Positions 9,237-40,666 of a stretch of DNA of 50,138 bases are shown piece by piece. The notes under the pieces are model-generated. The model did not search any database and was not told the origin of the DNA. It saw only the letters and a program-made list of their open reading frames with translations. This stretch comes from a virus. Numbering within the stretch: the stretch's first letter is position 1; each line of letters starts with the position of its first letter. The translations under genes and the position numbers were made by a program. The stretch covers positions 1 through 50,138 of IMG/VR virus record IMGVR_UViG_3300029947_000009. One strand, given 5' to 3'.

Positions 9237-9581
9237 TTACTCCCTGTGGGACCTAATAGCCTCCATTAGCCCTTCCCGGGTCTTCAGATTCTTGGTCTTG
9301 ATACCCAGTAGAGAGGCATACTGCTTAAGCTCCACCTCGGACATGTTCTGGAGTATACCTTCCTCGTCCAGGTTTTTATTGGACTCTGGGTCACTGGAGG
9401 GAGCGTCAGGGGGAGTTTCGGGGTCGGGGGTAGTATCCCCTTCCCCACTAACTCCCATATCGGGCCACTGCGAGGCTGTAGGAGAGCTTCCTTCCACTAC
9501 CCACCCCAGGGGGGAGTACAGTTCCTTAAAAGCCCCCTTGGGAACTAACAGAGTCTGTCCTCCCCTAGTAATTCTGAGCAT
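9237..9581 (-). CDS. Hypothetical protein with an acidic/Pro-rich centre and a C-terminal HeH/Rho-N-like motif
   Basis: C-terminus reads MSEVELKQYASLLGIKTKNLKTREGLMEAI. Confidence 0.6.
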   Translation of the reverse strand: MLRITRGGQTLLVPKGAFKELYSPLGWVVEGSSPTASQWPDMGVSGEGDTTPDPETPPDAPSSDPESNKNLDEEGILQNMSEVELKQYASLLGIKTKNLKTREGLMEAIRSHRE

Positions 9582-9594
9582 GGTGTATTCCTCC

Positions 9595-19783: not shown

Positions 19784-20182
19784 TCACCATTTCTCTTGAT
19801 CTCTCTTCGACTTCGCTTCGAACGTAATCAGCTGAGCCACGAATTCGATGGGGTCTCTTCCATGAGCAGCACAAAGCTCCAACACTTTCCGAGTAAATAC
19901 CCGATCTTCGCCAGAGAGAGTATAAACTACTTCCACAGTAGCTGGAGGATAATTGGACTCCTGTGCTAGAGAACTTATGAGAATGGAGCGATCGATTTTT
20001 CGGGCTATCTCTTCGAGCTCTCTCCAAACCATAATAGTGGTTTCCTGAATCCCATATACCTCTCTTAGCTCATCAGAACTCTCATCAGTCCATTTTTCCA
20101 GCGCGTAGCAGTTGTATCTACTATCACAGCTTATGTACCCATCTTTTCGAGAAATGCAGCTATCACAGGGGAAATCAATCAT
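19784..20182 (-). CDS. Hypothetical protein
   Basis: 132 aa with an 8-nt overlap with the upstream deaminase gene. Preferred over the overlapping 19713..20027 ORF. Confidence 0.55.
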   Translation of the reverse strand: MIDFPCDSCISRKDGYISCDSRYNCYALEKWTDESSDELREVYGIQETTIMVWRELEEIARKIDRSILISSLAQESNYPPATVEVVYTLSGEDRVFTRKVLELCAAHGRDPIEFVAQLITFEAKSKRDQEKW

Positions 20183-20783
20183 TTAATATCACCTCCCCAC
20201 CCCAGAGCAGATCTAACTGCGTAACCTTAATTCCCGCCTTTTTCAGCAGTTCCAGTCCCGCAGAGTCTCTATAGTCCTCTAGATACTTCAGCTCCTTAAT
20301 ACCAGAGTTCACAATCACCTTAGCACAATTGATACAGGGTGACATAGTACAATACAGGATACAGTCTTCCACTGATACTCCAGCCCTGGCAGCAAAGGCA
20401 ATGGCATTAGTCTCAGCATGAAGACTCCTGGTACACCCCGGACCCATACAGACTCTCTGGTAATACTCCAGTCCTTCTCCCGAAGAGAAATAAGGATTCT
20501 TTACGTCCAGGCAGTCTATCAGGGGGTTAGGCTGTACACAGGGAGGCATGCCGGAGATAGGTCCATTGTATCCCATAGACACGATACGACCATCCTTCAC
20601 AACCACAGCTCCAACCTGGGACCGGAGACAGGTAGACCGTTGGGATACCAGCAGACAGGCCACAGAGAATAAGGTATCTCGAGACATCCTCTTTCGGGTT
20701 ATCAGGTTTTCAGTGTAGTCTTGATTCCTTTCTTGACACCCTGAGTTTTCTTGATAACACTGATTCTTGTCCTTGTTTTCCAT
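20175..20783 (-). CDS. dCMP deaminase (ComEB/T4 cd-like zinc deaminase)
   Basis: HAETNAI and SPCINCAK zinc-binding motifs, plus VSQRSTC. Confidence 0.85.
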   Translation of the reverse strand: MENKDKNQCYQENSGCQERNQDYTENLITRKRMSRDTLFSVACLLVSQRSTCLRSQVGAVVVKDGRIVSMGYNGPISGMPPCVQPNPLIDCLDVKNPYFSSGEGLEYYQRVCMGPGCTRSLHAETNAIAFAARAGVSVEDCILYCTMSPCINCAKVIVNSGIKELKYLEDYRDSAGLELLKKAGIKVTQLDLLWGGEVILND

Positions 20784-25489: not shown

Positions 25490-26314
25490 ATGAAGAAAGA
25501 CAGAAATCGTATCCTGGGGTCTCTTCTGGGGTTTGCTATTGGAGATGCCATGGGAGCAACCACGGAGTTCATGACCCAGGAGAAAATCCATCAGGAGTAT
25601 GGGGAGGTCAACCAAATCATCGGGGGAGGCTGGCTTGACCTGATACCTGGAGAAGTTACCGACGACACTCAAATGATGATGATTGTGGCCAACGCCCGCA
25701 TGAAAGGTAAGTGTGAGTTCCTCCATAATTGCTGTACTGGTTTTGTGAAGTGGCTCAAAAGTAACCCTGTGGACGTAGGAGGAGCCTGTAGGCTCGCAAT
25801 AGTCCAGGGGGGTAGTAATCCTCCCCGTGAGTGGATGCGACTCTCTAAGAGACGTCAGGAGGTTCGTGGAGTGATGGACCTTGGGAACGGGGCTGTTATG
25901 AGGGCTCTATTCCTAGCTCTGAGTGGGGAGGTTGATCTGGCCATAAATCAGGGAAGGCTAACCCACAACAACTCGGAATCCGGTTATTACATTGATAAGT
26001 ACTGTCAGAGTGTATCTTCGGCTCTCTACTCTATTCCGATCTATGGGCCTTCTCTTATGGAGCCTACTGGACACGTGAAGAACTCCGTTAATAATGCCAT
26101 TTACTGGAGTTCTCACTCTACCAACTTTCGAGAGGCTGTTATTGGCCCTGTAAATCATGGGGGGGACGCTGATACTATAGCCGCTCTAACGGGGGGAATT
26201 GCTGGGGCCTGTTATGGGGCTGATAATATCCCCAGAGAATGGGTAGAGACTCTTGATTCTAACGTAGTGGGGGATTTAATGAACATGGCCAATTGGCTAA
26301 TGGATAATCCCTAA
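25490..26314 (+). CDS. ADP-ribosylglycohydrolase family protein (DraG/ARH-like)
   Basis: GFAIGDAMGATTEF, EVTDDTQMM and GGDADTIAALTGGIAGACYG...IPREW match the ARH family metal-site motifs. Confidence 0.85.
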   Translation: MKKDRNRILGSLLGFAIGDAMGATTEFMTQEKIHQEYGEVNQIIGGGWLDLIPGEVTDDTQMMMIVANARMKGKCEFLHNCCTGFVKWLKSNPVDVGGACRLAIVQGGSNPPREWMRLSKRRQEVRGVMDLGNGAVMRALFLALSGEVDLAINQGRLTHNNSESGYYIDKYCQSVSSALYSIPIYGPSLMEPTGHVKNSVNNAIYWSSHSTNFREAVIGPVNHGGDADTIAALTGGIAGACYGADNIPREWVETLDSNVVGDLMNMANWLMDNP

Positions 26315-27424: not shown

Positions 27425-27859
27425 GTGGGTAGAAAACGTAGGGTAAAGGTAGAGGTTACTCGAATTCGGGGCACTTACTACCTTTCTCAGGTAGGTGTAG
27501 AGGAAGACGAAATTAGGGCCTTAATCCTTAGGAGAAGGCTTCAGGTTTTAATTCATTCCTGTATCTATTACGTATTCAACGAAAATATAGTTTCTGATTC
27601 CACATGGAGTGGGTGGGCTAGGGAACTGGCCGAGCTTCAGAAAGAAAATCCATCTATAGCTTCCAGAGTAGATTATGCTTGGGAGTTTCAAGATTTTGAT
27701 GGGAGCACTGGGTTTCATCTACCTACTCGTAATCCCGAAATTATGGCAAAGGCCCAGTATCTTCTAAAATTATATAAGGAGGAAAAATATGGATACGTTG
27801 GACACCAAACTAATAGAGCAAAGCCTGGAAGTGATGTCATTAGAATCAAGATTCCATAG
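27425..27859 (+). CDS. Hypothetical protein
   Basis: 144 aa with a GTG start 6 nt after AGGAGG. The 3' end overlaps the next gene by 71 nt out of frame. Confidence 0.5.
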   Translation: MGRKRRVKVEVTRIRGTYYLSQVGVEEDEIRALILRRRLQVLIHSCIYYVFNENIVSDSTWSGWARELAELQKENPSIASRVDYAWEFQDFDGSTGFHLPTRNPEIMAKAQYLLKLYKEEKYGYVGHQTNRAKPGSDVIRIKIP

Positions 27860-28337
27860 ACTGAGGTGGCTTCGCTTCACGGGAACTTGTCTTAGGGAGT
27901 GTGCTCCCATGGACTTCTTTCTACAACCTGCCAGTATGTCGGGCAAGTGGCATCAGGGATACGAGTTAGGTGTGGGAGGACTGGTTCGTCATACTATAGC
28001 CGCTATGGATGTGGCTAGAACCCTATTTCCCACATATTCCTTTACTGAGGAGGAAGAGGATGCCATAGTCTCCGCTTTGGCCCTACATGATTTGGCTAAA
28101 CCCAGTAAGACCCATCCCCTTGAGGTAGAAGCTATTCTGGAGCCAATGAGAGACCAGTGGTATCTTGAAGTGGCAACTGTGGTATCTCTAATAGAGACTC
28201 ATCATGGTCAGTGGGACTACTATGGAAAGATGCCTCGTCCTAAAACTCCCAGCCAGCAGTTTGTTCATCTCTGTGACTACATATCCTCCCGCAAGAATAT
28301 TGCGGTGGATATATTTTATAAGGGGGAAACTAAATGA
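27789..28337 (+). CDS. HD-domain phosphohydrolase
   Basis: VRHTIAAMDVA ... ALALHDLAKP ... ETHHGQWDY (H...HD...H pattern), with an AAGGAGG RBS. Confidence 0.7.
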   Translation: MDTLDTKLIEQSLEVMSLESRFHRLRWLRFTGTCLRECAPMDFFLQPASMSGKWHQGYELGVGGLVRHTIAAMDVARTLFPTYSFTEEEEDAIVSALALHDLAKPSKTHPLEVEAILEPMRDQWYLEVATVVSLIETHHGQWDYYGKMPRPKTPSQQFVHLCDYISSRKNIAVDIFYKGETK

Positions 28338-28993
28338 AGGTTATTAAGTCCACAGTTGAGCCCCTGTTCTTTCCTGATCGGGAAACCCTGTATGGACTCA
28401 TCGAAACCGCAGGGAGAACCTGCTACCAGTCTGAAAAAGTAGAAGGGGATACCACTGAGAAATTCATCCAAAGACTTATGAAAAGAAAGCACTGGTCGGT
28501 ACTGGAGCATGCCAACCTTTCTATTCGCTTTACCTGTGATCGGGGTGTAACTCATGAGCTGGTTCGTCATCGAATTGCTTCCTACTCCCAGGAAAGCACT
28601 CGGTATTGTAATTATGCTGGGGATAAGTTTGGGGGGGGGGAGATCAAGTTCATTGATCTGGCCACCGGGTTCAATTATGACCTGAGTAACCCTGGGGACC
28701 TAGCCAAGTACGGGGTCTGGGCGAGAGCTATGGAGGATGCCGAGAAGTACTATATGGAGATGCTGAAGATTGGGGCTACCCCCCAGGAGGCTCGTTCGGT
28801 ACTTCCCAACAGTACCAAAACCGAGATTGTAGTAACTATGAATGTAAGGGAGTGGAGACACTTCTTGGAAATGAGGTGGGTCGGTGTAGCTGGCACTCCC
28901 CATCCCCAGATGGTAGAAGTGGCTGAAGAGGTTTATAACCTATTGAACTACTATTATCCCGCCCTCTTTGGGGATATCAAGAAGGCTAAATAA
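28334..28993 (+). CDS. thyX: Flavin-dependent thymidylate synthase ThyX
   Basis: Perfect ThyX motif RHRIASYSQESTR (RHRxxSxxxxSxR). Confidence 0.9.
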   Translation: MKVIKSTVEPLFFPDRETLYGLIETAGRTCYQSEKVEGDTTEKFIQRLMKRKHWSVLEHANLSIRFTCDRGVTHELVRHRIASYSQESTRYCNYAGDKFGGGEIKFIDLATGFNYDLSNPGDLAKYGVWARAMEDAEKYYMEMLKIGATPQEARSVLPNSTKTEIVVTMNVREWRHFLEMRWVGVAGTPHPQMVEVAEEVYNLLNYYYPALFGDIKKAK

Positions 28994-29011
28994 AGCTCAA
29001 GAATTTACACA

Positions 29012-29040
29012 TTTACAACTGCTTCTTTTTGTGATAGTAT
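29012..29040 (+). promoter_or_regulatory. Promoter (TTTACA-N17-TAGTAT with an upstream TG)
   Basis: gaatttacacaTTTACAactgcttctttttgTGaTAGTATataaacatcc. Confidence 0.5.
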
Positions 29041-29098
29041 ATAAACATCCCATAAGGGAACTGAAAAGGTCCCACAATAATATAAGGAGGAAATTATA

Positions 29099-29674
29099 AT
29101 GGCAAAGAACAAGAGACCCAAATTTCTGGAGGCTGATACCCCCGATCTGCTGAATCTGTTGAAGGAAACCCTGTCCGGTGATGAGGTTGACGATAAGGCT
29201 ACCTCCAAGGCCCTGAAGATCGCTGATGAGCTGATCTCTCGCCAGCCCGGCGATGAAGGCCCCATTTCTGTGGACGAAGCCCTGAGAGCTGCCGCTGATA
29301 CCATGACGGAGGCCCTGAACAAGATCAAGGGTGCCTACGAAAATGAGATCGCTATGATGGAGGATTCTGAAGGCTCCGATGAGTCTGAGGATGATGAGCC
29401 TGAGGAAGAGGCCCCCAAGTCCAAGAAGGCTGCCAAGGCTGAGAAGCCGACCAAGAAGTCCAAGAAGAAGGCTGAACCCGAGGAGGAAGAGGAAGATGAG
29501 GAAGAGGTGGAAGGAGATTCCGAAGAGGAAGATTCCGATGAGGATGAGGAAGACTACTCCGATTGGTCTATCAAGGACCTGAAGAAGGAGTGCCGCACCC
29601 GGGGAATCAAGGTAACCAAGGGAATGGCCAAGGCTGACCTGGTCAAAGCTCTGGAGGCAGATGATAAGGAGTAA
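29099..29674 (+). CDS. Highly acidic protein with a C-terminal HeH/SAP-like motif
   Basis: Long E/D/K runs and a C-terminus WSIKDLKKECRTRGIKVTKGMAKADLVKAL. Confidence 0.65.
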   Translation: MAKNKRPKFLEADTPDLLNLLKETLSGDEVDDKATSKALKIADELISRQPGDEGPISVDEALRAAADTMTEALNKIKGAYENEIAMMEDSEGSDESEDDEPEEEAPKSKKAAKAEKPTKKSKKKAEPEEEEEDEEEVEGDSEEEDSDEDEEDYSDWSIKDLKKECRTRGIKVTKGMAKADLVKALEADDKE

Positions 29675-29755
29675 GTCCACTCCTTTAGTCAAAGATACCA
29701 AGGGGGGGATGGGTATAAGTCCATCCTCCTTTTCTCTATTAAGGAGAAGTAATTC

Positions 29756-31720
29756 ATGAGAGAAGCAATCAAGTTTCTAAGCCGTATCTTCTCCCAACAG
29801 TGTGAACCTGGTGACTATATTATTCTGGCGGCTAGGGGGGAGAAATCCTGGAAGGATGTACCCATCAAGTTTGGGGGAGATTTTAAGGAGAAGCTTGGGG
29901 AATTTTTTGATACATACCCCCCACAGAATTATGACCTGTATTGGTCTCCTATGCCATTCAGTAAACCCAAGAGACAGAATCAATATTCGGTTGATACCAA
30001 GTTTATGGCTCAAGATATAGATGAGTGTGAGGACCCATCCATTCTAGACCCAAAGCCTAGTTATATTTGGGAAAGTTCCCCCAACAAGTATCAGGGATTA
30101 TGGGAACTAGACCGATATATAGACGAGCAGGAATACACTCCCCTCAATAAGGCCCTGGCTACTCATATAGGATGTGATGATTGTTTTGACTTCGCCCATG
30201 TCTATAGAATACCAGGAACCATAAACCACAAATACAAGAACTCCCCCCGAGTAGGACTTCCCAAGGCCACAAAGGCTGTCTATAAGCCTAAAAACCTACG
30301 TAAGTTTGTGGGGGGTGTAACTACTACCCCTACCTGGGAAAAAGCCCATAGCGAGCCTTCAGCGACTTCTAACAAGGGTACACTAGCTGAGCGGAAGATA
30401 TATGCCAAGTATTCTATTCCCAAGAAGATAAGAGATCTTTTAGCCCTGGAGTCTCTAGATGGGGTGGATAGGTCCGGGACTATCTGGTATGTAGAAAACT
30501 CCCTACATGAGTTGGGCATGACTCCTCAGGAAATTATCTACCTTATTAAAAATAGTGTATTTAATAAGTATAAGGGTAGAAGAGATGAAGACTCTAGAAT
30601 TCAAAAGGAATTGGAAAAGATTATTTCCGGGGAGATAGAGGACCCAAAGGAAGGAAATATAGGACTCATGAAAACCTCTAACTACGAAGAGGTTATGGGA
30701 AACTGTAATACCTTTGAGGGGTGGTTAGTAAAGGGGTTTTGGGGGAGAAGATCTCACGGAATAGTAGCCGGAATGCCCAAATGCTTCAAGTCTACTCTAG
30801 TCCATGATTTGGTAGTCTCAGTAGCCAGTGGTCAGCCATTTCTGGGGAAATTTCCAGTTCTGGAACCGGGTCCGGTGATAGTAGTTCAGAATGAGAATGC
30901 TGACTATATCATGAAGGACAGAACGGAAAAGATTATTCTAGACCGGGGATTAGTGGGGGAGGCTGAGAGGATAACCTCTAAAAAACTCCATGTAGAATTC
31001 CCCCCCGACCTACCTATAACTTTTCTCAACCAGCAGGGATTTACCCTCAGTAATGAGGACCACAGGAAGCAGATTGAATCCCTCATAAGGGATATAAAAC
31101 CGGTACTTGTGGTGTTTGACCCCCTCTATCTTATGTTTGATGGGGACTTAAATTCCTCCAAGGAACTCAACCCCATATTGAATTGGTTACTGAGTCTTAA
31201 AACCCAGTACAAAACTAGTGTTATGGTGATTCACCACTACAATAAAGGTAGTAATCAGCAGGCACTTCGTGGAGGAGCTAGAATGGCTGGCTCTGTAATG
31301 TTATATGGTTGGGTTGAGTCTGCCTGGTATCTTACCAAAACCGACGAGGATGAGGAGCTTCCCCCCAATCAGAGAGTAGATTTAGCTGAGTCCTCTGGAT
31401 CGTCCACCATAACTCTTACTAGAGAATTTCGAATGGCTGGTAGTTACCCGGATTTGGATATACACTTTGAGATGGGAGAAATAGGAAACCCCAGTTATAG
31501 GGTTACTGTGGGGGCTGCTGGAGAACCCCATGTTACTATTAAGACTCTGGAAGATGAAATTCTGGGAATACTTCGAAATTCCAATGTTCCTGTTACCAAG
31601 AGAGCTCTAAGGGAGAGTTTGGGGATGGATATAGGGGCTATTCGTAAGGCCCTTGAGAATCTGGTAAAATCCAAGAAAATAGTTTCTATGGACAAGGGTT
31701 ATACCATTCCCAAACGCTGA
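29756..31720 (+). CDS. Primase (RepB'/prim-pol-like N-domain) fused to a RecA-fold AAA_25-type helicase
   Basis: N-terminus has the acidic motif AQDIDECED and VYRIPGTINHKY. The centre has Walker A-like AGMPKCFKST and Walker B VLVVFDPLYLMF. Confidence 0.7.
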   Translation: MREAIKFLSRIFSQQCEPGDYIILAARGEKSWKDVPIKFGGDFKEKLGEFFDTYPPQNYDLYWSPMPFSKPKRQNQYSVDTKFMAQDIDECEDPSILDPKPSYIWESSPNKYQGLWELDRYIDEQEYTPLNKALATHIGCDDCFDFAHVYRIPGTINHKYKNSPRVGLPKATKAVYKPKNLRKFVGGVTTTPTWEKAHSEPSATSNKGTLAERKIYAKYSIPKKIRDLLALESLDGVDRSGTIWYVENSLHELGMTPQEIIYLIKNSVFNKYKGRRDEDSRIQKELEKIISGEIEDPKEGNIGLMKTSNYEEVMGNCNTFEGWLVKGFWGRRSHGIVAGMPKCFKSTLVHDLVVSVASGQPFLGKFPVLEPGPVIVVQNENADYIMKDRTEKIILDRGLVGEAERITSKKLHVEFPPDLPITFLNQQGFTLSNEDHRKQIESLIRDIKPVLVVFDPLYLMFDGDLNSSKELNPILNWLLSLKTQYKTSVMVIHHYNKGSNQQALRGGARMAGSVMLYGWVESAWYLTKTDEDEELPPNQRVDLAESSGSSTITLTREFRMAGSYPDLDIHFEMGEIGNPSYRVTVGAAGEPHVTIKTLEDEILGILRNSNVPVTKRALRESLGMDIGAIRKALENLVKSKKIVSMDKGYTIPKR

Positions 31721-31735
31721 AAGTCGTGATATAAT
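31707..31735 (+). promoter_or_regulatory. Extended -10 promoter (TGaTATAAT) for the nucleotide-metabolism/polymerase cassette
   Basis: gtcgTGaTATAATataaacatcc; it shares the downstream TATAAACATCC with the promoter at 29012. Confidence 0.45.
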
Positions 31736-31767
31736 ATAAACATCCTAAATACAAGGAGGAGTAAACA

Positions 31768-32304
31768 ATGTTAATCTTTACTGGAATGGACAACTCGGGA
31801 AAGACTACCCTGGCTGTTAAGGTCTCTCAAAAACTAGGCCTTCCCCTGGTTAAGTCCATGGGACCTAACCACACAAAGGATGAGAAGCACCTCTGGTTTT
31901 TGGACCAGATGACCCGGGAGACAGCTTTTCCAGATTCTGTCATTTTTGATCGATTCCTTCCCTTTGAGGAGATGGTATATGGGAAGGTTCTGAGGGGAGA
32001 CCCCATCTACTCTCTGGATGACCCCTACATGAGATCTTTGAAAGATCTCGATCCCACCATTATTTATACTCGACCCTCCTCTGAGGTTATCTTCAATTTT
32101 GGTGATCGGGAACAGATGGCCGGGGTAGTAGAAACCCGGGAGAAACTCCTGATTGCCTGGGATGACCTGATGTGGAAGCTGCTCAATTCCGGATGGAACG
32201 TCCAGATCTACGATTATACTATGGACTCGGATTTCGAAGAAAAATTCAAGTCCACCTCAGAAGTTCTGAAAGAGTTTTTCGAAAATCACAAGGAGGAAGA
32301 ATAA
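31768..32304 (+). CDS. P-loop (deoxy)nucleoside monophosphate kinase-like protein
   Basis: The N-terminal P-loop FTGMDNSGKTTLA resembles the dTMP-kinase GxDGxGKTT motif. Confidence 0.6.
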   Translation: MLIFTGMDNSGKTTLAVKVSQKLGLPLVKSMGPNHTKDEKHLWFLDQMTRETAFPDSVIFDRFLPFEEMVYGKVLRGDPIYSLDDPYMRSLKDLDPTIIYTRPSSEVIFNFGDREQMAGVVETREKLLIAWDDLMWKLLNSGWNVQIYDYTMDSDFEEKFKSTSEVLKEFFENHKEEE

Positions 32305-32957
32305 TGAATATCAACCATGCTGTGGAAGAAAAGGTCGAGGGTGACCTGCTGAAGGCCATCTTTGATCGGCAGAAATCCCTGATGAGAAAGTATCACGACA
32401 TCGAACTGAAGTCTGGATTGCTTCAGACTGGGGACTGCCCTGTGAACCTGGATGACAAGAGAGGTCAGGCCCGAATCAAGGATTTCTCCTGGAGAGTTAC
32501 CGAGGAGCTTGGAGAGGCTCTGGATGCCAAGACCAGTAAGGAACACTATCAGGAGGAGCTTATCGATGGTCTTCATTTCCTGACTGAGCTGACTATCCTG
32601 GCCGGCAAGGACTACGATACTATTCTTCCCCAGGGCATTCCTGTATACGATGAGGACCATCTGAAAGACCTGGTAGAGAATGCCAGAGATATCCTTCACT
32701 CCAATGACCGTTCCCTCAACTATTGGGTTTCTCACTTCATTGAGCAGCTGGCTATGATGTGCAACTGCCTGAAGAACAAGCCCTGGAAGCAGTCCATGAT
32801 GAAGACTGACCAGGAAGCTTTCTATCGCCGACTGATGGAAGTTTGGATTTGTTATATTACAATTCTGGTAACTTCTGGACTATCGGCTGAGGACATTGCC
32901 AGTGTGTACCTAAAGAAGTCCCAGGTTAATCAGTTCCGTCAACGTTCTAACTACTAA
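32304..32957 (+). CDS. All-alpha NTP pyrophosphatase (dimeric dUTPase / MazG-like family)
   Basis: Start at the ATG at 32304 (TAATG overlap, AAGGAGGAAG RBS). Contains RVTEELGEALDA...EELIDGLHFLTEL and a C-terminal YLKKSQVNQFRQRSNY, typical of dUTPase_2-type enzymes. Confidence 0.6.
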   Translation: MNINHAVEEKVEGDLLKAIFDRQKSLMRKYHDIELKSGLLQTGDCPVNLDDKRGQARIKDFSWRVTEELGEALDAKTSKEHYQEELIDGLHFLTELTILAGKDYDTILPQGIPVYDEDHLKDLVENARDILHSNDRSLNYWVSHFIEQLAMMCNCLKNKPWKQSMMKTDQEAFYRRLMEVWICYITILVTSGLSAEDIASVYLKKSQVNQFRQRSNY

Positions 32958-32967
32958 GGGGGGGAAT

Positions 32968-33711
32968 ATGCTTCACAAGCACTATAAAGACTTCAGTGAA
33001 GCTTACTTCGAACTCAATCGGGACATTCTTCTCCATCCAGAACAACTTGACTATTTGGAAAATACCAGGGGAGTCATAGAAGACCTTTTTATCACTATCG
33101 ACAATATAGCCTGTGACAAGGTGGACTTGGCTCCCCTGGGATACTCCCCCAAAAAATGGGACCATCTTGTAAAAACCTATATTGACCTGGATAAACTCAG
33201 GGAGTTTTATCATCTCTGTGAAATATCCAAGGGAATATCCATAGCCTTCGATTTTAATCGAAAAAAGGTTGGAAATGGGTCTTGTATGAGGGAGGTAATC
33301 CTTACTCGTAACAATAGAAAGAGGCCTTGGCAAAAAGTTAGAGTAGTCTGGAGGGCCACAGAGCTACAAAAAAGATGGGCGGCAGATTTAATTCTGCTTC
33401 ATCACCTTATTTCCAAAATTCCCCATAGTCAAATTACAGAGATTGAGTTTTATGTGGTAAGTGCCTATCAATCGGCGATGTACATTATACCCTTGGTGGA
33501 GTCGGTTTTTGGTATTCCTATGGAATCTCTAGACCCCACAAAGAGTCCCTACTGGAAGGTCATTCGGTATAGAAATCAGAAGTACTTCCAGCCAGACTCC
33601 CCCAGGCAAAAGCTTAGTCCTGCTTGGAGAATGCAGGATGTAGCCAATGCTGTTAGGGAGGGGAAGAAGTTCGAACCCATAACCTATAAAAATTTTGAAT
33701 TGGAGGTATAA
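32968..33711 (+). CDS. Divergent thymidylate-synthase-fold protein (paralogue A)
   Basis: NGSCMREVIL...VRVVWRATELQKRWAADLILLHHLISKI parallels the TS core PCH..QFYV...YQRSxDxxLGxPFNIASYALL. The Cys is kept; the RS.D motif is altered. Confidence 0.45.
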   Translation: MLHKHYKDFSEAYFELNRDILLHPEQLDYLENTRGVIEDLFITIDNIACDKVDLAPLGYSPKKWDHLVKTYIDLDKLREFYHLCEISKGISIAFDFNRKKVGNGSCMREVILTRNNRKRPWQKVRVVWRATELQKRWAADLILLHHLISKIPHSQITEIEFYVVSAYQSAMYIIPLVESVFGIPMESLDPTKSPYWKVIRYRNQKYFQPDSPRQKLSPAWRMQDVANAVREGKKFEPITYKNFELEV

Positions 33712-33714
33712 TTC

Positions 33715-34446
33715 ATGAGAATCTACATCAACGCAGAAGAGATGATCGAGGAGACAAAGAGGGATCTCGCTGAGATGGGTATTGTGGTAAGACCTGCAAC
33801 CATGCAGGACAAATACGTCAAGGGAGATCCCGACTATGAAACCCGGGAGCTTCAGAACTATTCCTACTGCCTGTTGGATGCCAAGAGTCAGGATATTCCG
33901 GGGGTATCCCAGCCCTGGGCGGATGCTGAGTTTGGGGAGAGAGTTACGGACCCCTGGTATCGTACTCCTGATGGAAAAGTTGATCCTCTCCACACTCCAG
34001 AATACCTCAACCCCGGAAGTGCCTGGAGACTACGTAAGGAGGTATGGACTGAGTACCTGCACGAGGGTAAGATGGCCTATACCTACAACGAGCTTATCTG
34101 GAATAATGACCAGGCAGTTAAGGTCATCAATCGCCTGAAGGAGGACCCCGACTCCCGTCAGCTGTGGATTAGTCTTTGGAATCCTGATAAGGACCCGGAC
34201 TTTCTAGGGGGTATTTCCCGAGTTCCCTGTTCCCTGGGGTATGGCCTCCAGGTTCGTGATGGGAAGCTCAATCTGCACTATGTAATGAGGTCCTGTGACT
34301 TCGCTACCCATTTCCGAAACGATGTCTACCTGGCCATTCGGTTCTTGGAGTGGGTAGCTGAGAAAACCGGCTATCCTGTGGGAAGCTTTACCCACACTAT
34401 CTTCTCCCTGCATGTGTACAACAAGGACGTGGAAGGAGTATTCTAA
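33715..34446 (+). CDS. Thymidylate synthase-fold enzyme (dNMP C5-methylase/hydroxymethylase-like, paralogue B)
   Basis: SRQLWISLWNP, VPCSLGYGLQVRDGKLNLHYVMRSCDFATHFRNDVYLA and FTHTIFSLHVY align with ThyA SRR..vs.WNP, PPCH..fQFYV.dGkLs..lyQRSCDvFLG.PFNIASY and H..GD.HiY. Confidence 0.8.
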   Translation: MRIYINAEEMIEETKRDLAEMGIVVRPATMQDKYVKGDPDYETRELQNYSYCLLDAKSQDIPGVSQPWADAEFGERVTDPWYRTPDGKVDPLHTPEYLNPGSAWRLRKEVWTEYLHEGKMAYTYNELIWNNDQAVKVINRLKEDPDSRQLWISLWNPDKDPDFLGGISRVPCSLGYGLQVRDGKLNLHYVMRSCDFATHFRNDVYLAIRFLEWVAEKTGYPVGSFTHTIFSLHVYNKDVEGVF

Positions 34447-36890
34447 TGACCTGTAATAACTGCAACCTCTGTTCTTTCTCGGACCCATCCTGCATATGGG
34501 GATCTGGAAACCCCAAGGCCAAAGTTATGGTGGTTAATAGCTACGCCAGTGAACAGGATGAGGAAAGGGGGGCGGCAGTAATGCCGTCCTCCCTCGTAGA
34601 AAGACTTCAGGGAATAGGAATAGACCCCGAAAAGGTCTACTATACCAACGCTATTAAATGTGCCTGTCCCAGAGGTACCAAATTTAAGGCTGGGGACATT
34701 AAGAAATGTAAAGTTCATCTAGATCAAGAGATTGCCCAGGTAAAACCACAGTTCATTTTAGTTTTAGGAGCTCAGGCTCTAAAAGCCACAGTAGACGGCT
34801 CTATTACAGAATTAAACGGAGTAATGGTGGAGAGGGATGGGGTTAAGTATATGCCCTCCTATAGCCCGGGAATAGTGTACCGAGATCCAGGTAAGGCTCC
34901 CTTTGTGGATAAGGCTATGAACAATTTTAAGTCGATGGTGAAAGGGGACCTGGATGGACCTCCTGAGCTGGACGTTAGAGTCATAGCTAATATGAGACAA
35001 CTTAAAAGGGCCTTTCAGTATCTGACCGAAAATGGCTACCTTCACCTTAGCTATGATATAGAAACCACAGGTCTAGTAAGGTTCGAGGACGAGGTAAATC
35101 TATTTGGATTTGGAAATGACCAGGTTCAGTATATTATACCCCTGGAGGCTCCCCTGAGCCCGCTGAAGGGCCTAAGGATGGCACAACATAAACTTATAAC
35201 CACTGCCATAAAGTGGTTAAATAGGAACGCTAAGGACCTAGTAGCAGGCAATGGAAAGTTCGATGATCTATTCCTGGAGTATAAGTTTGGGGTGAAGCCC
35301 CATATAACCTTTGACGTAGTATTGGCCTCCCATATTCTAAATGAGAATACCCCAAACGGAGTCAAGGAGAATGCCGTTCAGGAGTGCAATGCCCCCAACT
35401 GGGATGTGGATAAAAACCTAAAGACTGGCCAGTACAGTTCCCCTGAAAAGTATCAGGAGTATTTAACCTACCTCGGATATGATATCTATTATGAATACAA
35501 GCTTTTTAGGGTATTCCGAAAGAAATTAAAACAGGATAAGGCCCTGATGAAACTCTTCTACCACTTATATATGCCGGGAATAATATCCTATGAGACTGTG
35601 GAACAACATGGGGTATTTATCTATCCCCAGCAGTTTAAGGAGGTAAGGAAGCATCTGGAATCTGAGAAATCCAAGATTGAGAAACAGCTCCTTAAACTGG
35701 CTGGGCATGAGGTAAACTGGAACTCCCCAGCTCAAATTCAAAAACTACTCTATGAAGAACTAAAATTGCCTATTCTGGAGAGAACTGAGTCAGGAGCCCC
35801 CTCCACAAGTGAGGCTACTATGATGCAGTTACGAGAGGAGCACCCCATAGTAGAACTAATCCTTAAATACCGGGGGGTAAATATTCAGATTTCCCATTTT
35901 ATAGATGGATGGATAAATCGAATGTGGGGAAGGAGATTGTTTCCCAATTTCAAACTTCACGGAACTGTAACGGGAAGAACCTCCTGTACTGACCCCAACC
36001 TTCAGCAGGTCCCTAGAGACCCCATCATTCGGAATTTGGTAGGAGCTCCAGAAGGTTGGTCTGTGGTTGAGATAGACTATTCTCAGGCTGAACTTCGTAT
36101 TGCTGCCATAATGTCCGGGGACGAGACCATGACCCGGATATATCAAACTGGGGGAGATATCCATACCCACACTTACGAGATGATAACGGGAGAAAAGGTC
36201 TCAGATGATAAGTATATCCGGAAAGAGCAAAGAAAGAAAGCCAAGGCCGTTAATTTTGGATTTGTTTATGGAATGGGCTGGAAGAAGTTCAAGATATATG
36301 CTAGAGATAACTATGGGGTTGATCTTACTGATAAGGAAGCCGAACAGTGGCGGGAGAAGTTTTTTGATACCTACCATTCCCTACCCAAATGGCACTCTAA
36401 GCAAAGGAGAATAGTCCAGTCTATGGGACAGGTAAGAAGTCCTATAGGGAGAATAAGAAGACTTCCTGATATTTATTCCACAGATAAATCTAAAAAGGCT
36501 GAAGCTGAGAGACAGAGTATAAACTCCCCCGTTCAAGGATTTGGTTCAGACCTTACTATTTTGGGGATGTCTGAAATTATGGGCAATGCCCAGTACTATG
36601 ACCCTGACTATGTATTGGATAAGGATAAGTTCTTTGTCATAGGAACCGTGCACGATGCTACTTTGTTCGAGGTAAGGAATGACTATTTAATGGAATTTTG
36701 CCCAAGGGCTAAGCATATTTTGGAACATCCAAAGGCACTTGAGGAAGTATTCCACTTCGAGACTGATGTACCCATTATAGCCGATGTGGCCGTTGGTAGA
36801 TCCTGGGGGGCTGGTAAGGAACTTCACATGGACCCTGGGGATGAAACCTGGAAACAAGAAATACAGGAGTATCTAGATAGTCTAAAATAA
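34446..36890 (+). CDS. Family A DNA polymerase with 3'-5' exonuclease and an N-terminal degenerate UDG (family 4)-like domain
   Basis: Exo motifs: LSYDIETTGL, NGKFDDLFL, YLGYDIYYEY. Pol motifs: VVEIDYSQAELRIAA (A), RKKAKAVNFGFVYGMG (B), IGTVHDA (C). The N-terminus CNNCNLC...GSGNPKAKVMVVNSYASEQDEERG...YYTNAIKCACP has a UDG4 layout, but GEAPG is replaced by NSYAS. Confidence 0.9.
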   Translation: MTCNNCNLCSFSDPSCIWGSGNPKAKVMVVNSYASEQDEERGAAVMPSSLVERLQGIGIDPEKVYYTNAIKCACPRGTKFKAGDIKKCKVHLDQEIAQVKPQFILVLGAQALKATVDGSITELNGVMVERDGVKYMPSYSPGIVYRDPGKAPFVDKAMNNFKSMVKGDLDGPPELDVRVIANMRQLKRAFQYLTENGYLHLSYDIETTGLVRFEDEVNLFGFGNDQVQYIIPLEAPLSPLKGLRMAQHKLITTAIKWLNRNAKDLVAGNGKFDDLFLEYKFGVKPHITFDVVLASHILNENTPNGVKENAVQECNAPNWDVDKNLKTGQYSSPEKYQEYLTYLGYDIYYEYKLFRVFRKKLKQDKALMKLFYHLYMPGIISYETVEQHGVFIYPQQFKEVRKHLESEKSKIEKQLLKLAGHEVNWNSPAQIQKLLYEELKLPILERTESGAPSTSEATMMQLREEHPIVELILKYRGVNIQISHFIDGWINRMWGRRLFPNFKLHGTVTGRTSCTDPNLQQVPRDPIIRNLVGAPEGWSVVEIDYSQAELRIAAIMSGDETMTRIYQTGGDIHTHTYEMITGEKVSDDKYIRKEQRKKAKAVNFGFVYGMGWKKFKIYARDNYGVDLTDKEAEQWREKFFDTYHSLPKWHSKQRRIVQSMGQVRSPIGRIRRLPDIYSTDKSKKAEAERQSINSPVQGFGSDLTILGMSEIMGNAQYYDPDYVLDKDKFFVIGTVHDATLFEVRNDYLMEFCPRAKHILEHPKALEEVFHFETDVPIIADVAVGRSWGAGKELHMDPGDETWKQEIQEYLDSLK

Positions 36891-36907
36891 AACAAGAATG
36901 ACCCCCA

Positions 36908-36936
36908 TTTACGGGGGGTCTTCTTTATGGTATAAT
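36908..36936 (+). promoter_or_regulatory. Promoter whose -35 box lies in the loop of the polymerase terminator hairpin (36900-36920)
   Basis: gaccccc-aTTTACg-gggggtc ttctttatgg TATAAT, with a 17-nt spacer. Confidence 0.55.
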
Positions 36937-36966
36937 AGGGGTAATAAAGGGAAGGAGGTGAATATC

Positions 36967-37146
36967 ATGAGTAACGTGGTCATCAAGTGTATGGACTGCA
37001 ATAAACCCTTTACCCTTACCTCTAGTCATGCAAAGTGGTTTTTGGATAGGGGTCTAGAACTTCCCAAGAGGTGTAAAGAGTGCAGAACCCGAAGACGTAA
37101 TGAGAAGGAGGAAAACCACAATGGCAGAGACCCTAAAGCTGTCTAA
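36967..37146 (+). CDS. Zinc-ribbon protein
   Basis: 59 aa from the ATG at 36967 (GAAGGAGGTGA RBS). Contains CMDCNKPF...LPKRCKECR, i.e. CxxC...CxxC. Confidence 0.6.
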   Translation: MSNVVIKCMDCNKPFTLTSSHAKWFLDRGLELPKRCKECRTRRRNEKEENHNGRDPKAV

Positions 37147-38095
37147 CTCCAAGGTTACTACTTGGAGAAAATGTCACATGGCCTATCATTACAAGTATCA
37201 CCTCAAACTTCGTCCTAGAAAAAAGGGAATAGCCCTGAGGAGAGGCTCCATAATTCACGAGTGCATAGAGGCCTATGATTCAGGAAGGTCTTGGAGAAAA
37301 CCTTTTAACTCCTTTGCTAAGCAATTCTACGAGGAGACTTTTAAGGAAGAGATCGTAGAGATAGGTGATATTCCCCGAATGGTGGAAGAACTGATGGAAA
37401 ACTATCAGGCCCTGTATGAGGACGATGGACTCACTTATCTGGGAAACGAACTCCATTTTGAATTCTCCCTGATGCCTGGAGTAATTATTGAAGGGTATCT
37501 AGATGCACTGGTAGAGGATGAAACTGGGGCCATATGGCCAAAGGAAACCAAAACCTATAAGAGAAATCCTGATTATGATTTCCTGCTTCTCAATACCCAG
37601 TCAGCCCTCTATACCTGGGCCGTTATGGAGATGGGATACTCCCCCAAAGGAACCCTGTGGGATATTATTAGGGCCAAGGAACCTGGTAGGCCCCAGCTAC
37701 TCAAGGATGGAACCATCTCTAAAAGGGGAATTGATTCTACTCCTTATACAGTCAAGAAGGCCCTGAGGGAGCTAGGTCAAAATCCTGAGGACTATAAGGA
37801 CCTACTAGCCAAAGTATCCTATGATGACTACTTTAGACGTTATTCGGTAAGGGTAAACCATACTGTAGTTAAGGGGATTATGGAGGACTTCAAATCCACA
37901 GCTAAGGAGATCATAAAGTCTGGAGACCAACTCTGTGACAGGAACCTTGGAAAAGGGTGCGCCTGGTGTGACTATAAACCCCTATGCCAAGCTGACCTAA
38001 TGGGATTAGATACTGATTTCATTAGGAAAAAACAATTTGAAGTAGTAGAAAAGGAGGGAAGGCCTGATGGCAACGAAGGAGAAGAAAACCCCTAA
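37121..38095 (+). CDS. PD-(D/E)XK exonuclease, Cas4/RecB-like, with a C-terminal Cys cluster
   Basis: Start at the ATG at 37121 (AAGGAGGAAAA RBS). Contains EGYLDALVED...ETKTYK (D..ExK-like), an N-terminal C in WRKCH, and a C-terminal CAWCDYKPLC. Confidence 0.7.
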   Translation: MAETLKLSNSKVTTWRKCHMAYHYKYHLKLRPRKKGIALRRGSIIHECIEAYDSGRSWRKPFNSFAKQFYEETFKEEIVEIGDIPRMVEELMENYQALYEDDGLTYLGNELHFEFSLMPGVIIEGYLDALVEDETGAIWPKETKTYKRNPDYDFLLLNTQSALYTWAVMEMGYSPKGTLWDIIRAKEPGRPQLLKDGTISKRGIDSTPYTVKKALRELGQNPEDYKDLLAKVSYDDYFRRYSVRVNHTVVKGIMEDFKSTAKEIIKSGDQLCDRNLGKGCAWCDYKPLCQADLMGLDTDFIRKKQFEVVEKEGRPDGNEGEENP

Positions 38096-38918
38096 GAAGT
38101 TCGGTTTAGAGGATCGTTTCAAGGACCTGTTGGACATGGACACCCCTACCATAATCACTCTATATGGGAGACCTGGCACTGGTAAGACCACCATATCCTG
38201 TACTCTACCCAAGCCCCTGCTCCTGATTGATGTAAAGGATAAGGGTACCGACTCGGGTAAGAGGGAAGACCTGGAACCTGGAGACATCACTGTTTTTGAA
38301 CTGGAAAGCTTCGATGAGATTTATGACCTCTATGACTACATAGAGGAAAATCCCAACAAATTCAAGTCTGTGGTAATAGACCATATGACTGCCCTTCAGG
38401 ATTTTTGCTATGAGAAGGTCATGGATGAGGAAGGCAAAAGTAGAATGTCCCAGGGTATGTATGGAACCGCTGGGGGATATCTGAAAGAGGTAATCAACCT
38501 TTATAAGGGACTAACTGATCTGGGCATCACCCCCTGTTTTAACTGCCAGGACCGTATGGAGTCCGGAGACGGGGAGGGGGAGGACCAGTTGCTCCCGGAG
38601 GTAGGACCCAGTCTCATGCCCTCTGTGGCCCGTACTCTATGTGCTGCTTCTAGAGTGATTGGCCATACCTATCAGTTTGAGAATGTGGAAAAGCTGGATG
38701 GAGCTAAGGTTAGGAGAAATATTGAATTTCGCCTAAGACTGGGGCCAAACCCCTACTATATAACCAAGGTTACCCGTCCTTTCGGAACTCCCTGTCCCCA
38801 GTTCTTGGTAAATGCCAACTACTCTGACATCATGAAAGTGGTTCGGGGAAAGTGGGTAGAATCCACAGGAACCAAGAAAAAAGGTTCTAATGTCAAGAAG
38901 AAACTGGCTAGTAGGTGA
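38067..38918 (+). CDS. Sak4-like RecA-fold ATPase (recombination)
   Basis: Walker A YGRPGTGKTT and Walker B-like SVVIDHMT; adjacent to SSB-like and nuclease genes. Confidence 0.65.
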   Translation: MATKEKKTPKKFGLEDRFKDLLDMDTPTIITLYGRPGTGKTTISCTLPKPLLLIDVKDKGTDSGKREDLEPGDITVFELESFDEIYDLYDYIEENPNKFKSVVIDHMTALQDFCYEKVMDEEGKSRMSQGMYGTAGGYLKEVINLYKGLTDLGITPCFNCQDRMESGDGEGEDQLLPEVGPSLMPSVARTLCAASRVIGHTYQFENVEKLDGAKVRRNIEFRLRLGPNPYYITKVTRPFGTPCPQFLVNANYSDIMKVVRGKWVESTGTKKKGSNVKKKLASR

Positions 38919-39779: not shown

Positions 39780-40211
39780 ATGGGAAGTAAGCCAGAGACC
39801 GGAGTAGTCAAGTCCATAATGGACCTTCTAAAATCTTCCTTTCCAGGACTATATTTCAAGACCCATGGGGGACTATACCAGAGAATTGGACTTCCCGATA
39901 TACTGGGAGTACATAGGGGTAGGTTCATAGGAATTGAGGTAAAATATCCTGGAAAGGAGGATACTCTCTCTAAACTCCAGGAAAGGACCCTGGACCTAAT
40001 CAATCTATATGGCGGGGTAGGATTTATGTCCACCTCACCTGAGGATACAAACCACAAACTTAAGGAGGAAATGAAAACATGGCCAGTACCAATGAAAAGC
40101 TCAAAAAGCTCAAGGAAATCCATCAGCAGGAAGAAGCTCTCTACTCCGAGAGAAATGAGAAGTACGGAGACAGCTTCGCAAAAACCTTCAAGGAGTACGG
40201 GAAGCCGGTAG
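39780..40211 (+). CDS. VRR-NUC domain nuclease
   Basis: GLPDILGVHRGRFIGIEVKYPGKEDTLSKLQERTL matches the VRR-NUC core (PD...E.K...Q). The RBS is weak. The last ~44 codons overlap the next gene out of frame. Confidence 0.6.
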   Translation: MGSKPETGVVKSIMDLLKSSFPGLYFKTHGGLYQRIGLPDILGVHRGRFIGIEVKYPGKEDTLSKLQERTLDLINLYGGVGFMSTSPEDTNHKLKEEMKTWPVPMKSSKSSRKSISRKKLSTPREMRSTETASQKPSRSTGSR

Positions 40212-40666
40212 CCCTGATTCGCCTGGAGGACAAGCTCAATCGGGCTAAAAACCTGATTTCCCTGGGGATGGAAGGTTCTGATGGGGAATCTCTCATCGAT
40301 ACTCTGAAGGATCTGTCCAACTACGCCAACATGACCATCATCGAGCTGACGCTCAATCCTGAAGTGAAGGATGAGACTGCCCAGGAAGCTCCCAAGAAGA
40401 AGAGAAAGAAGGTCAAGGGTGAGGCTGCCCCGGCCATGGAGACTGAGACTCCCAAGGAGAAAGGTCCCCTGGACGATCTGACCAAGAAGCAGCTCACTGA
40501 GATCATCTCCCAGCTGGGGGGAACAGTTCCCAAGAAAGCCAACCGGGAAAAGCTGACCTCCCTGATCAATGGCTTCCCCAAGGCCAAGGTAGCTGTGGCT
40601 ATCACCTCCCTGAAGTCCTCTACTGAGACCTCTGAGGAGAAGACTGAAAATGGTGAAGAGGAATAA
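40079..40666 (+). CDS. DUF1599-like protein with a C-terminal HeH-like motif
   Basis: ERNEKYGDSFAKTFKEYGKPVALIRLEDKLNRAKNL resembles DUF1599. The C-terminus reads LTKKQLTEIISQLGGTVPKKANREKLTSLI. Confidence 0.55.
   Translation: MASTNEKLKKLKEIHQQEEALYSERNEKYGDSFAKTFKEYGKPVALIRLEDKLNRAKNLISLGMEGSDGESLIDTLKDLSNYANMTIIELTLNPEVKDETAQEAPKKKRKKVKGEAAPAMETETPKEKGPLDDLTKKQLTEIISQLGGTVPKKANREKLTSLINGFPKAKVAVAITSLKSSTETSEEKTENGEEE

Follow-up and report, generated by a model that had tools for sequence, protein, structure and literature searches.

A phage gene cluster pairing a distinct class of thymidylate synthase homologue with a second, divergent protein of the same fold: a candidate cytosine-replacement module

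The 50,138-nucleotide window analysed here (positions 1 to 50,138 of the IMG/VR virus record IMGVR_UViG_3300029947_000009) carries five consecutive genes on the + strand, at 31768-36890, which encode a probable small P-loop deoxynucleoside monophosphate (dNMP) kinase, an all-alpha nucleoside triphosphate pyrophosphatase (NTP-PPase), two proteins with the thymidylate synthase (TS) fold and a family A DNA polymerase. Almost every known replacement of a pyrimidine in phage DNA begins with a TS homologue and, to our knowledge, only five classes of product have been demonstrated for these enzymes: dTMP, 5-hydroxymethyl-dUMP (5hmdUMP), 5-hydroxymethyl-dCMP (5hmdCMP), 5-methyl-dCMP (5mdCMP) and 5-hydroxy-dCMP (5hodCMP). 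Alignments show the fourth protein of the cluster, ORF4, to belong to a sixth TS sequence class, marked by Asp at ThyA position 177 together with invariant Arg143 and His173 and with Gln or Lys at 127. The third, ORF3, is a divergent TS-fold protein that belongs to no Pfam family. By analogy with characterised phages, we lean on balance towards reading the cluster as a module that replaces deoxycytidine ahead of replication and that is transcribed together with the polymerase that would use its product.

ORF4 (33715..34446, + strand, 243 aa) matches the Pfam TS family PF00303 with 67.7 bits (cut-off 24.3, E 1.2e-18) over profile positions 78-218 of 266. It was aligned to E. coli ThyA, T4 gp42, the Xp12 TS and the L. 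casei TS variant N229D. In this alignment Cys146 of ThyA corresponds to Cys172 of ORF4, Arg166-Ser167-Cys168-Asp169 to Arg192-Ser193-Cys194-Asp195, His207 to His233 and Asn177 to Asp203, which bears out the catalytic Cys and the RSCD motif that a first-pass annotation of this DNA had picked out by eye. That annotation could not decide between dUMP and dCMP as the substrate from the motif FRNDV. The alignment settles the point, as Asp203 falls on the position of ThyA Asn177, T4 gp42 Asp179 and the substituted residue of L. casei N229D, and an exchange of Asn177 for Asp is known to shift specificity from dUMP to dCMP (PMC13326640; PMC8670742). From this residue the target of ORF4 is predicted to be a cytosine nucleotide.

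On its sequence ORF4 is not a bona fide thymidylate synthase, since it falls below every NCBIfam TS equivalog cut-off (best 64.7 against 174.55) and the genome also encodes a ThyX. Of the features of ThyA it has the PF00303 match, Cys146 and Arg166-Ser167, and it lacks Asn177, an equivalog score and the full C-terminal segment, the protein ending about 10 residues beyond the positions of His207 and Tyr209. ThyX, the ordinary dTMP route of this genome, lies at 28334..28993 (+ strand; PF02511, 5.2e-47) and has the RHRIASYSQESTR motif in its translation, as had been noted in the first-pass annotation.

In ThyA numbering, ORF4 has a signature consisting of Asp177, Arg143 (Arg169 in ORF4), His173, Gln127, Ser147, Asp169 and a truncated C-terminus, and this was invariant in 135/135 homologues sampled from two database searches. 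At positions 143, 173 and 127 ThyA has Leu, Gly and Arg with a full C-terminus, T4 gp42 has Asp, Gly and Arg with a truncated one, and the Xp12 5mdCMP synthase has Asn, Gly and Arg with a full one and an adjoining dihydrofolate reductase (DHFR) gene. For a wider view, 79 IMG/VR loci with the ORF4-type gene were recovered and scanned with home-made hidden Markov models; individual loci are cited below by L numbers where necessary. Asp177 is present in all 79 and the whole signature in 78, with Gln or Lys at position 127. The clade comprises at least 6,416 proteins at E <= 1e-10, a count that may take in other TS types; the best 120 matches are all below 1e-105 and lie mostly on contigs of 40-80 kb. 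Against solved structures the clade profile matched AfhB (5.9e-14), the L. casei TS N229D (9e-12), MilA (6e-10) and T4 dCH (2.6e-7), and with ORF4 alone AfhB was matched at 5.3e-12. An AlphaFold2 (AF2) model of ORF4 (pLDDT 83) gave MilA (TM 0.73), AfhB and TS N229D with dCMP as the top Foldseek matches.

Asp169 of ThyA contacts the pterin of the folate. As ORF4 keeps this residue and the C-terminal lid for hydride transfer is missing, our best guess from the sequence is a folate-dependent hydroxymethylase. Transfer of a hydroxymethyl group would be likelier than that of a methyl group because the lid of ThyA and Xp12 is absent and no DHFR was found in the window; of the features of an Xp12-type dCMP methyltransferase, Asp177 is present, the full C-terminus is not and the DHFR was not found. 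A pathway to 5-hydroxycytosine was considered and rejected, as 5hodCMP synthases are defined by the change of Asp169 to Asn (PMC13326640), which is absent here.

ORF3 (labelled X; 32968..33711, + strand, 247 aa) matched nothing in Pfam, in NCBIfam or in a single-sequence search of PDB, and direct BLASTP comparison with ORF4 detected no similarity. Its TS fold is visible only through structure prediction and profiles. An AF2 model built from 30 homologues (pLDDT 94.4, pTM 0.91) was compared with PDB using Foldseek. The dCMP hydroxylase AfhB of phage HY126 (9iqu, E 1.3e-7), MilA and T4 dCH led the matches and thymidylate synthases came after them, so that the leading structures are TS-fold enzymes acting on cytosine nucleotides (MilA is a CMP hydroxymethylase). 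The top matches in BFVD were uncharacterised phage proteins, one of them from PMBT14. Comparison of the ORF3 family with a TS alignment by hhalign (E 5e-5) placed Cys106, Arg129, Glu132 and Asp140 of ORF3 at Cys146, Arg166, Asp169 and Asn177 of ThyA, and an independent search of PDB sequences with the family profile found 9iqu at 5.6e-7 with the same register for the Arg and the Asp. The model and the profile comparisons thus confirm the TS fold of ORF3, and the by-eye call of two TS-fold proteins in the cluster holds even for this non-obvious member.

The ORF3 family has 294 cluster representatives at E<=1e-3. Over 10 ORF3-like proteins from very distant phages only the Cys, the Arg, the Asp and Tyr71 are invariant; the same four are near-invariant in 47 diverse members of the family, and lineages sharing less than 20% identity keep the Cys and the equivalents of Arg166 and Asp177. 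The position of ThyA Asp169 is Glu132 in ORF3 and Glu or Tyr in the other ORF3-like lineages, and no conserved equivalent of Arg126/127 is found in the 10 lineages. The invariance of Cys, Arg and Asp over such distances suggests that ORF3 is catalytically active and, like ORF4, binds a cytosine nucleotide. Of the nucleotide- and folate-binding residues proposed for checking in the first-pass annotation, ORF4 keeps the equivalents of Cys146, Arg166 and Asp169, and ORF3 those of the Cys, the Arg and Asp177. Two features are absent from the literature searched: a TS subfamily with Arg143, His173 and Gln127, and a TS-fold partner related to AfhB that has no Pfam family.

The possibility that ORF3 and ORF4 are the halves of a split ThyA was rejected, both being complete TS folds, and no fusion of the two proteins was seen among the database matches. 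Annotation of the ORF3 family in public records is erratic: the homologue in phage CPAS-15 is labelled 'colanic acid biosynthesis glycosyltransferase', which looks spurious, and in MW202777.1 (L007) the gene, at about 4070-4856, is unannotated and falls in the gap between a 'hypothetical protein' and a 'pyrimidine hmase'.

The five genes follow one another with almost no gaps: ORF1 and ORF2 overlap by 1 nt, as do ORF4 and ORF5, while 10 nt separate ORF2 from ORF3 and 3 nt separate ORF3 from ORF4. Each of the five starts is preceded by a Shine-Dalgarno sequence, and the coordinates of ORF1-ORF5 match those called independently on an ENA metagenome contig of 50,158 bp with identical sequence. 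The kinase, ORF1 (31768..32304, + strand, 178 aa), matches phrog_761 'thymidylate kinase' at 3.6e-15 and, weakly, SPbeta YorR (0.004) and the vaccinia thymidylate kinase (TMPK) in PDB; no Pfam or NCBIfam model reaches its cut-off. Its sequence contains the P-loop GMDNSGKTT and a DRF (pattern GxDxxGK[ST]T plus DR[YFH]), which we take to be motifs of the thymidylate kinase type. Similar kinases are also present in the ~52-kb Salmonella and Escherichia phages BP63, UPF_BP2, ZCSE2 and swi3, which are Rosemountvirus-/Loughboroughvirus-like.

ORF2 (32304..32957, + strand, 217 aa) starts at the ATG at 32304, the GTG at 32172 giving merely a longer mechanical ORF. It matches PF08761 dUTPase_2 with 46.6 bits (cut-off 22.9) and phrog_12184 'nucleotide pyrophosphohydrolase' at 2.8e-47, and its acidic motifs EELGEALD and EELIDGLHF are those of the all-alpha NTP pyrophosphatase superfamily. 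There is local similarity to ELVDIFHF of T4 gp56, and relatives of ORF2 at other loci match either PRA-PH or dUTPase_2. By analogy with gp56, ORF2 is proposed to be a dCTPase, possibly also a dUTPase. The polymerase, ORF5 (34446..36890, + strand, 814 aa), contains a family A polymerase domain (PF00476, 3e-82), a domain of the uracil-DNA glycosylase (UDG) superfamily (PF03167, 1.8e-13) and a 3'-5' exonuclease domain (PF01612, 8.8e-6), and matches phrog_17 at 4e-134. The UDG-superfamily domain forms the N-terminus (34446-34920) and the same fusion is found in the polymerases of many relatives; SP15/SPO1-like polymerases with an active uracil glycosylase domain have been described (bioRxiv 10.1101/2025.03.26.645540). 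The identities first assigned by eye to these three genes, a P-loop dNMP-kinase-like protein, a dUTPase/MazG-like NTP pyrophosphatase and a DNA polymerase, hold.

The same order of genes recurs in other phages: kinase, all-alpha NTP-PPase, ORF3-like gene and TS clade, often with a dCMP deaminase and/or ThyX, then the UDG/PolA polymerase followed by a PD-(D/E)XK nuclease and an AAA_24 (Sak4-like) protein. The nearest cultured relatives of the ~50-kb gut phage analysed here are the ~52-kb Clostridium perfringens phages P21, CPD4, CP3, CPAS-15 and Clo-PEP-1. Carriers of the module include P21, mycobacteriophage Muddy, Serratia phage Serbin, a Manatee Spring phage, in which the ORF3-like gene is present and unannotated, Gordonia phage CherryonLim, Streptomyces phage KimJongPhill, Brevundimonas phage Polewnik and three unrelated metagenome contigs, so that the hosts span Firmicutes, Actinobacteria and Proteobacteria. 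The ORF3-like proteins of Serbin and CherryonLim match the profile at ~1e-24, though left out of its building. Muddy gp47 is linked to the family only through the wider profile, its hhalign comparison with the close ORF3 family being weak (34% probability). In Muddy (L003, 3108-8639) gp49 'thymidylate kinase', gp48 'dUTPase', the hypothetical protein gp47 of the ORF3 family, gp46 and the PolA gp44 make up the module. The 'thymidylate synthase' gp46 carries Asp177, Arg143 and His173, and its label as an ordinary thymidylate synthase is, from these residues, probably wrong.

A locus search seeded with a narrower alignment recovered only nine close loci. In the 79 IMG/VR loci described above the NTP-PPase is present in 77, the kinase in 42 and an ORF3-like gene in 72, where it always lies between the NTP-PPase and the TS gene. 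In most isolates the stop of the ORF3-like gene and the start of the TS gene overlap or are a few nucleotides apart, which suggests that the two are translationally coupled. A deaminase directly follows the TS gene in many relatives. The all-alpha NTP-PPase is adjoined by a canonical trimeric dUTPase (PF00692) in 36 related loci. These loci do not require the NTP-PPase for the hydrolysis of dUTP, which makes a role as a dCTPase like gp56 more attractive.

Two ORF3-like genes stand in tandem at some loci. In the L069-L090 group (e.g. L078, 3186-4953) they precede the TS homologue, so that three consecutive genes encode TS folds, and the trimeric dUTPase lies immediately 5' of the NTP-PPase. Between the TS gene and a split PolA gene, L078 (6169-7789) and L086 and L090 (6154-7774) encode a nucleotidyltransferase resembling IspD (PF01128) and a phospho-alcohol transferase of the LicD family (PF04991). 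LicD enzymes require a hydroxyl acceptor, and the insertion would fit a hydroxyl-bearing (hydroxymethylated) base in that role; it is a lead only. Phospho-alcohol hypermodification of such a base may take place in these three phages, although we know of no description of this modification for DNA.

From what was observed, namely the identities of the genes, the folds and active-site residues of their products and the conserved gene order, a pathway can be proposed in which the substrates, the product and the presence of modified virion DNA are inferred by analogy with T4 gp56/gp42/gp1 and with Xp12. ORF2 would hydrolyse dCTP, and perhaps dUTP, to the monophosphate, emptying the dCTP pool and supplying dCMP. 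ORF4 would then attack C6 of dCMP and add a one-carbon group at C5, and ORF3 would act on the same nucleotide or on the product of ORF4, as a partner subunit or in a second step at C5. The modified dCMP would be phosphorylated by ORF1, converted to the triphosphate by the host NDP kinase and incorporated by the UDG-PolA polymerase, while ThyX and the deaminase encoded elsewhere would keep the supply of dTTP independent. A more specific form of this pathway, which we hold only tentatively and think rather unlikely, is a two-component system in which a folate-type C5 one-carbon transferase (with Arg143/His173) works with an AfhB-like, possibly flavin-dependent partner. The base replacing cytosine would then be other than 5-methyl-, 5-hydroxymethyl- or 5-hydroxycytosine, for example one with an oxidised or further substituted one-carbon group at C5. 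It would be made at the nucleotide level and would stand in for C in a very widespread lineage of siphophages, with abundant human-gut phages and Muddy among them.

In gene content the proposed pathway is close to that of T4. By protein family the two have the same three activities, an all-alpha NTP-PPase, an Asp177 TS homologue without the ThyA lid and, on the probable assignment of ORF1, a small dNMP kinase; the FRND motif is shared by ORF4 and gp42, and both genomes encode a separate thymidylate synthase and a dCMP deaminase (td and cd in T4). In the window the latter is represented by a 202-aa protein of the dCMP/cytidine deaminase family (20175..20783, - strand; PF00383, 2.2e-23; phrog_174, 2.6e-48; below the NCBIfam ComEB cut-off). 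The T4-like logic seen in the first-pass annotation, with these three genes beside the polymerase and ThyX and a deaminase elsewhere, therefore stands. The two systems differ in several respects. ORF4 has Arg rather than Asp at 143, His rather than Gly at 173 and Gln rather than Arg at 127, and its clade profile matches T4 dCH (2.6e-7) far less well than AfhB (5.9e-14). The window has an additional TS-fold gene in ORF3 and its genes are contiguous beside a family A polymerase, ORF1 is TMPK-like and not a homologue of gp1, and no glucosyltransferase was seen among the non-structural ORFs scanned.

In the 5-methylcytosine phages Xp12 and PaMx74, too, a deaminase and a family A polymerase are encoded close to a TS homologue with Asp177. 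In these phages the TS homologue makes 5mdCMP, the deaminase is selective for 5mdCTP and cytosine is completely replaced before replication (bioRxiv 10.1101/2024.12.05.627091). The Xp12 TS, however, is full length (289 aa), with Asn143, Gly173, Arg127 and a DHFR neighbour, whereas ORF4 is truncated; no homologue of ORF3 was detected by tblastn in Xp12-type phages; and the window encodes a ThyX and has its deaminase gene on the opposite strand at a distance of 11 kb. AfhB, RB69 gp48 and DLP3 gp80 (PDB 9iqu/9iqc), which are flavin-dependent TS-fold monooxygenases making 5-hydroxy-dCMP (PMC13326640), include in AfhB the best solved relative of both ORF3 and ORF4, with a similar length, a truncated C-terminus and the same Cys, Arg and Asp177. 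They are set apart by the D169N change, the residue being Asp195 in ORF4, Glu132 in ORF3 and Glu or Tyr in the relatives of ORF3. No arabinosyl- or glycosyltransferase gene was seen among the non-structural ORFs scanned in the window.

A further parallel comes from MetaGPA, in which metaviromic DNA was selected for resistance to restriction enzymes blocked by C5-modified cytosine or to APOBEC, and in which dCMP-deaminase genes were flanked by Thymidylat_synt, PRA-PH, DNA_pol_A_exo1 and DNA_pol_A (bioRxiv 10.1101/2024.12.05.627091; PMC8670742). The TS homologues concerned have Asp177 and a residue other than His at 147, and 5/7 of those tested made 5mdCMP (bioRxiv 10.1101/2024.12.05.627091). 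The neighbourhood studied here is of the same kind, with Thymidylat_synt, PRA-PH, dCMP_cyt_deam_1/MafB19-deam, DNA_pol_A_exo1 and DNA_pol_A, and locus L022 of the ORF4 clade has exactly these families. As the MetaGPA analyses rest on Pfam domains, the ORF3 family, which has none, was invisible there.

The SPO1, ViI and M6 systems for 5-hydroxymethyl-dU (5-hmdU) also have a TS homologue, a kinase and an NTPase near their replication genes, and the first-pass annotation had drawn this comparison. A thymidine- or uracil-directed pathway of that type would involve a dUMP hydroxymethylase, 5-hmdU in the DNA and post-replicative hypermodification, with ORF1 as the 5-hmU DNA kinase (5-HMUDK). Some hints of it exist, as the kinases of CherryonLim and KimJongPhill are labelled 'polynucleotide kinase' and the protein at 40079-40666, described earlier as DUF1599-like, has a DUF1599/Nmad1 match, although at 23.4 bits against a Pfam threshold of 25 this is sub-threshold and the description was not upheld. 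Such systems need an Asn177 dUMP hydroxymethylase, a 5-HMUDK and an aGPT-Pplase; none was found in the window, and no aGPT-Pplase or related Pfam family is present among the non-structural ORFs scanned (the structural block at ~465-17100 was not scanned). Position 177 is Asp, not Asn, in ORF3, in ORF4 and throughout the clade of ORF4. The motifs of ORF1 are of the TMPK type, and no 5-HMUDK-encoding phage (ViI, M6 or SP10) appears in the organism tally or among the 50 listed of its 87 tblastn matches, so the assignment of ORF1 as a 5-HMUDK was rejected. ThyX, moreover, would oppose the replacement of T. We regard this pathway as very improbable, essentially excluded by Asp177. What survives of the pyrimidine-replacement proposal is thus the cytosine-directed module, supported by Asp177, by the gene order kept in three host phyla and by MetaGPA; the analogy with SPO1 does not.

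Several observations weigh against a cytosine-replacement module. The residues of ORF4 fit no rule for a known product, position 143 being Arg and not Leu (methyl) or the Asp/Glu of dCMP hydroxymethylases (PMC13326640), and position 169 being Asp and not Asn (hydroxy), so the call of its product is weak. In 7/79 loci the TS clade with the same signature occurs without an ORF3-like gene, which is thus a frequent but non-obligatory companion; around four of these (L042, L045, L063 and L066) no modification enzyme was seen except a C5 DNA methylase in L066. ORF1 and ORF2, called dedicated to the modification in the first-pass annotation, could equally work alongside ThyX, ORF2 turning dUTP into the dUMP that ThyX uses and ORF1 taking the resulting dTMP on to dTDP, so that this word goes beyond the evidence. 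Pfam scans of the non-structural ORFs gave no glycosyltransferase, in agreement with the earlier reading by eye, and no carbamoyltransferase or DNA methyltransferase; for this reason any modification is probably small, and the easy assembly of such genomes from ordinary metagenomes points the same way. GATC occurs 121 times in the window against 210 expected (z = -6.2), and such avoidance would be needless if all restriction were blocked, which argues against blanket protection. GTAC, CTAG and CATG are moderately under-represented, neither TTTAAA (11 expected) nor ATTAAT (9 expected) occurs at all, and the dinucleotides of the window show CpG observed/expected 0.45, CC/GG 1.36 and no excess of TpG/CpA. 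As regards blanket protection the palindrome and dinucleotide statistics are suggestive, not decisive. The literature searched contains no account of DNA modification for the cultured carriers (the C. perfringens, Gordonia and Streptomyces phages, Muddy, Serbin, PMBT14 and P744), and PMC11780129 does not deal with Pseudomonas phage Almagne.

Both the GATC avoidance and the lack of reports for Muddy and the C. perfringens phages would fit an explanation in which the cluster supplies canonical nucleotides and the virion has no modified base. ORF2 would then be a house-cleaning dUTPase, ORF1 a thymidylate kinase and the TS-fold pair an alternative route to thymidylate, e.g. from dCMP through 5-methyl-dCMP and deamination to dTMP or dTTP, where ORF3 might deaminate via a covalent 5,6-dihydro intermediate and the modified intermediates would be consumed before incorporation. 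The isolates are annotated in this sense (thymidylate kinase, dUTPase and thymidylate synthase, e.g. in Muddy and Serbin), the deaminase gene is directly 3' of the TS gene in many relatives, deamination of 5mdCTP to dTTP takes place in Xp12-like phages (mSCD preprint) and the UDG domain of the polymerase suits an anti-uracil strategy. The same chemistry in Xp12, however, leaves 5-methylcytosine fully replacing C (PMC7653180), and this genome and several relatives, having ThyX and the deaminase already, would have no need of another way to make thymidylate. The separate trimeric dUTPase beside the NTP-PPase in 36 loci and the enrichment of such neighbourhoods in the modified-DNA fraction by MetaGPA also speak against it, and we consider canonical supply unlikely. 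An equally doubtful alternative concerns ORF3 alone, which would be a non-catalytic or regulatory partner, a heterodimer subunit completing or gating the site of ORF4, the product being 5-hydroxymethyl- or 5-methyl-dCMP as in T4 or Xp12. Thymidylate synthases are obligate dimers that share phosphate-binding arginines over the interface (textbook knowledge), and the loss of Arg127 (Gln/Lys) in the TS clade, the lack of a conserved Arg126/127 equivalent in the ORF3-like proteins and the adjoining or overlapping genes in most lineages could all be understood in this way. That 5/7 Asp177 TS homologues made 5mdCMP when tested alone (bioRxiv 10.1101/2024.12.05.627091) indicates that a single one can suffice. 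Invariant Cys and equivalents of Arg166 and Asp177 at below 20% identity would nevertheless be unusual for a pseudoenzyme, the ORF3-like genes occur in tandem at some loci, and the seven loci that lack one show that it is not an obligate subunit.

If the pair does make a modified cytosine, a large lineage that crosses phyla, with abundant phages of the gut, biocontrol phages of C. perfringens and the clinical phage Muddy among its members, carries non-canonical DNA, which would bear on evasion of restriction and CRISPR, on sequencing bias and, in phage therapy, on innate immune sensing. A new category would have to be added to the residue rules for the products of TS homologues, and ORF3 would represent a new family of enzymes that might serve as nucleotide or epigenetic tools. 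The interest of the module lies in its breadth, with a TS class of thousands of metagenomic members that is almost always preceded by a Pfam-less TS-fold gene with its own Cys/Arg/Asp triad, and in the availability of cultured carriers in which the prediction can be tested.

Transcription of ORF1-ORF5 as one unit is plausible from the sequence. A promoter-like site, TTCCCA-17 nt-TG-TATAAT (31707..31735, + strand), falls within the 47 nt that separate ORF1 from the primase-helicase gene and has the top score within 29000-38500 (10/12 matches plus TG). A terminator-like hairpin, GACCCCC-loop-GGGGGTC with a T-rich run (36900..36920, + strand), lies 10 nt past the polymerase stop. Both are consensus matches only, and the region holds no more sites of these kinds than shuffled sequence does. 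Of the statement in the first-pass annotation that one promoter drives five genes, the consecutive genes are upheld and the single promoter is plausible. An ORF for a treble-clef zinc-finger protein (PF13451; 36898-37146, + strand) begins 8 nt after the polymerase stop. Its 5' end holds the hairpin and also a second strong promoter-like site (36908-36936), so translation may in fact begin at a later codon; the protein is 59 aa long in the ENA gene call against 82 aa.

Elsewhere in the window, ThyX is adjoined by an HD-domain phosphohydrolase (27789..28337, + strand; PF01966, 2e-8; phrog_5889, of unknown function), and this assignment and that of the deaminase agree with those made in the first-pass annotation. 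Just upstream of the HD/ThyX pair is a stand-alone protein resembling the N-terminal NAD+-binding domain of DNA ligase (27425-27859, + strand; PF22745, 3.2e-27), and an ADP-ribosylglycohydrolase is encoded at 25490-26314 (+ strand; PF03747, 3.8e-46); these two genes may be linked to NAD+/ADP-ribosylation counter-defence. A protein with the C-terminal DNA-binding domain of Spo0A (18681-19100, - strand; PF08769, 1.2e-22) suggests a sporulating Firmicute as the host and possible interference with the control of sporulation.

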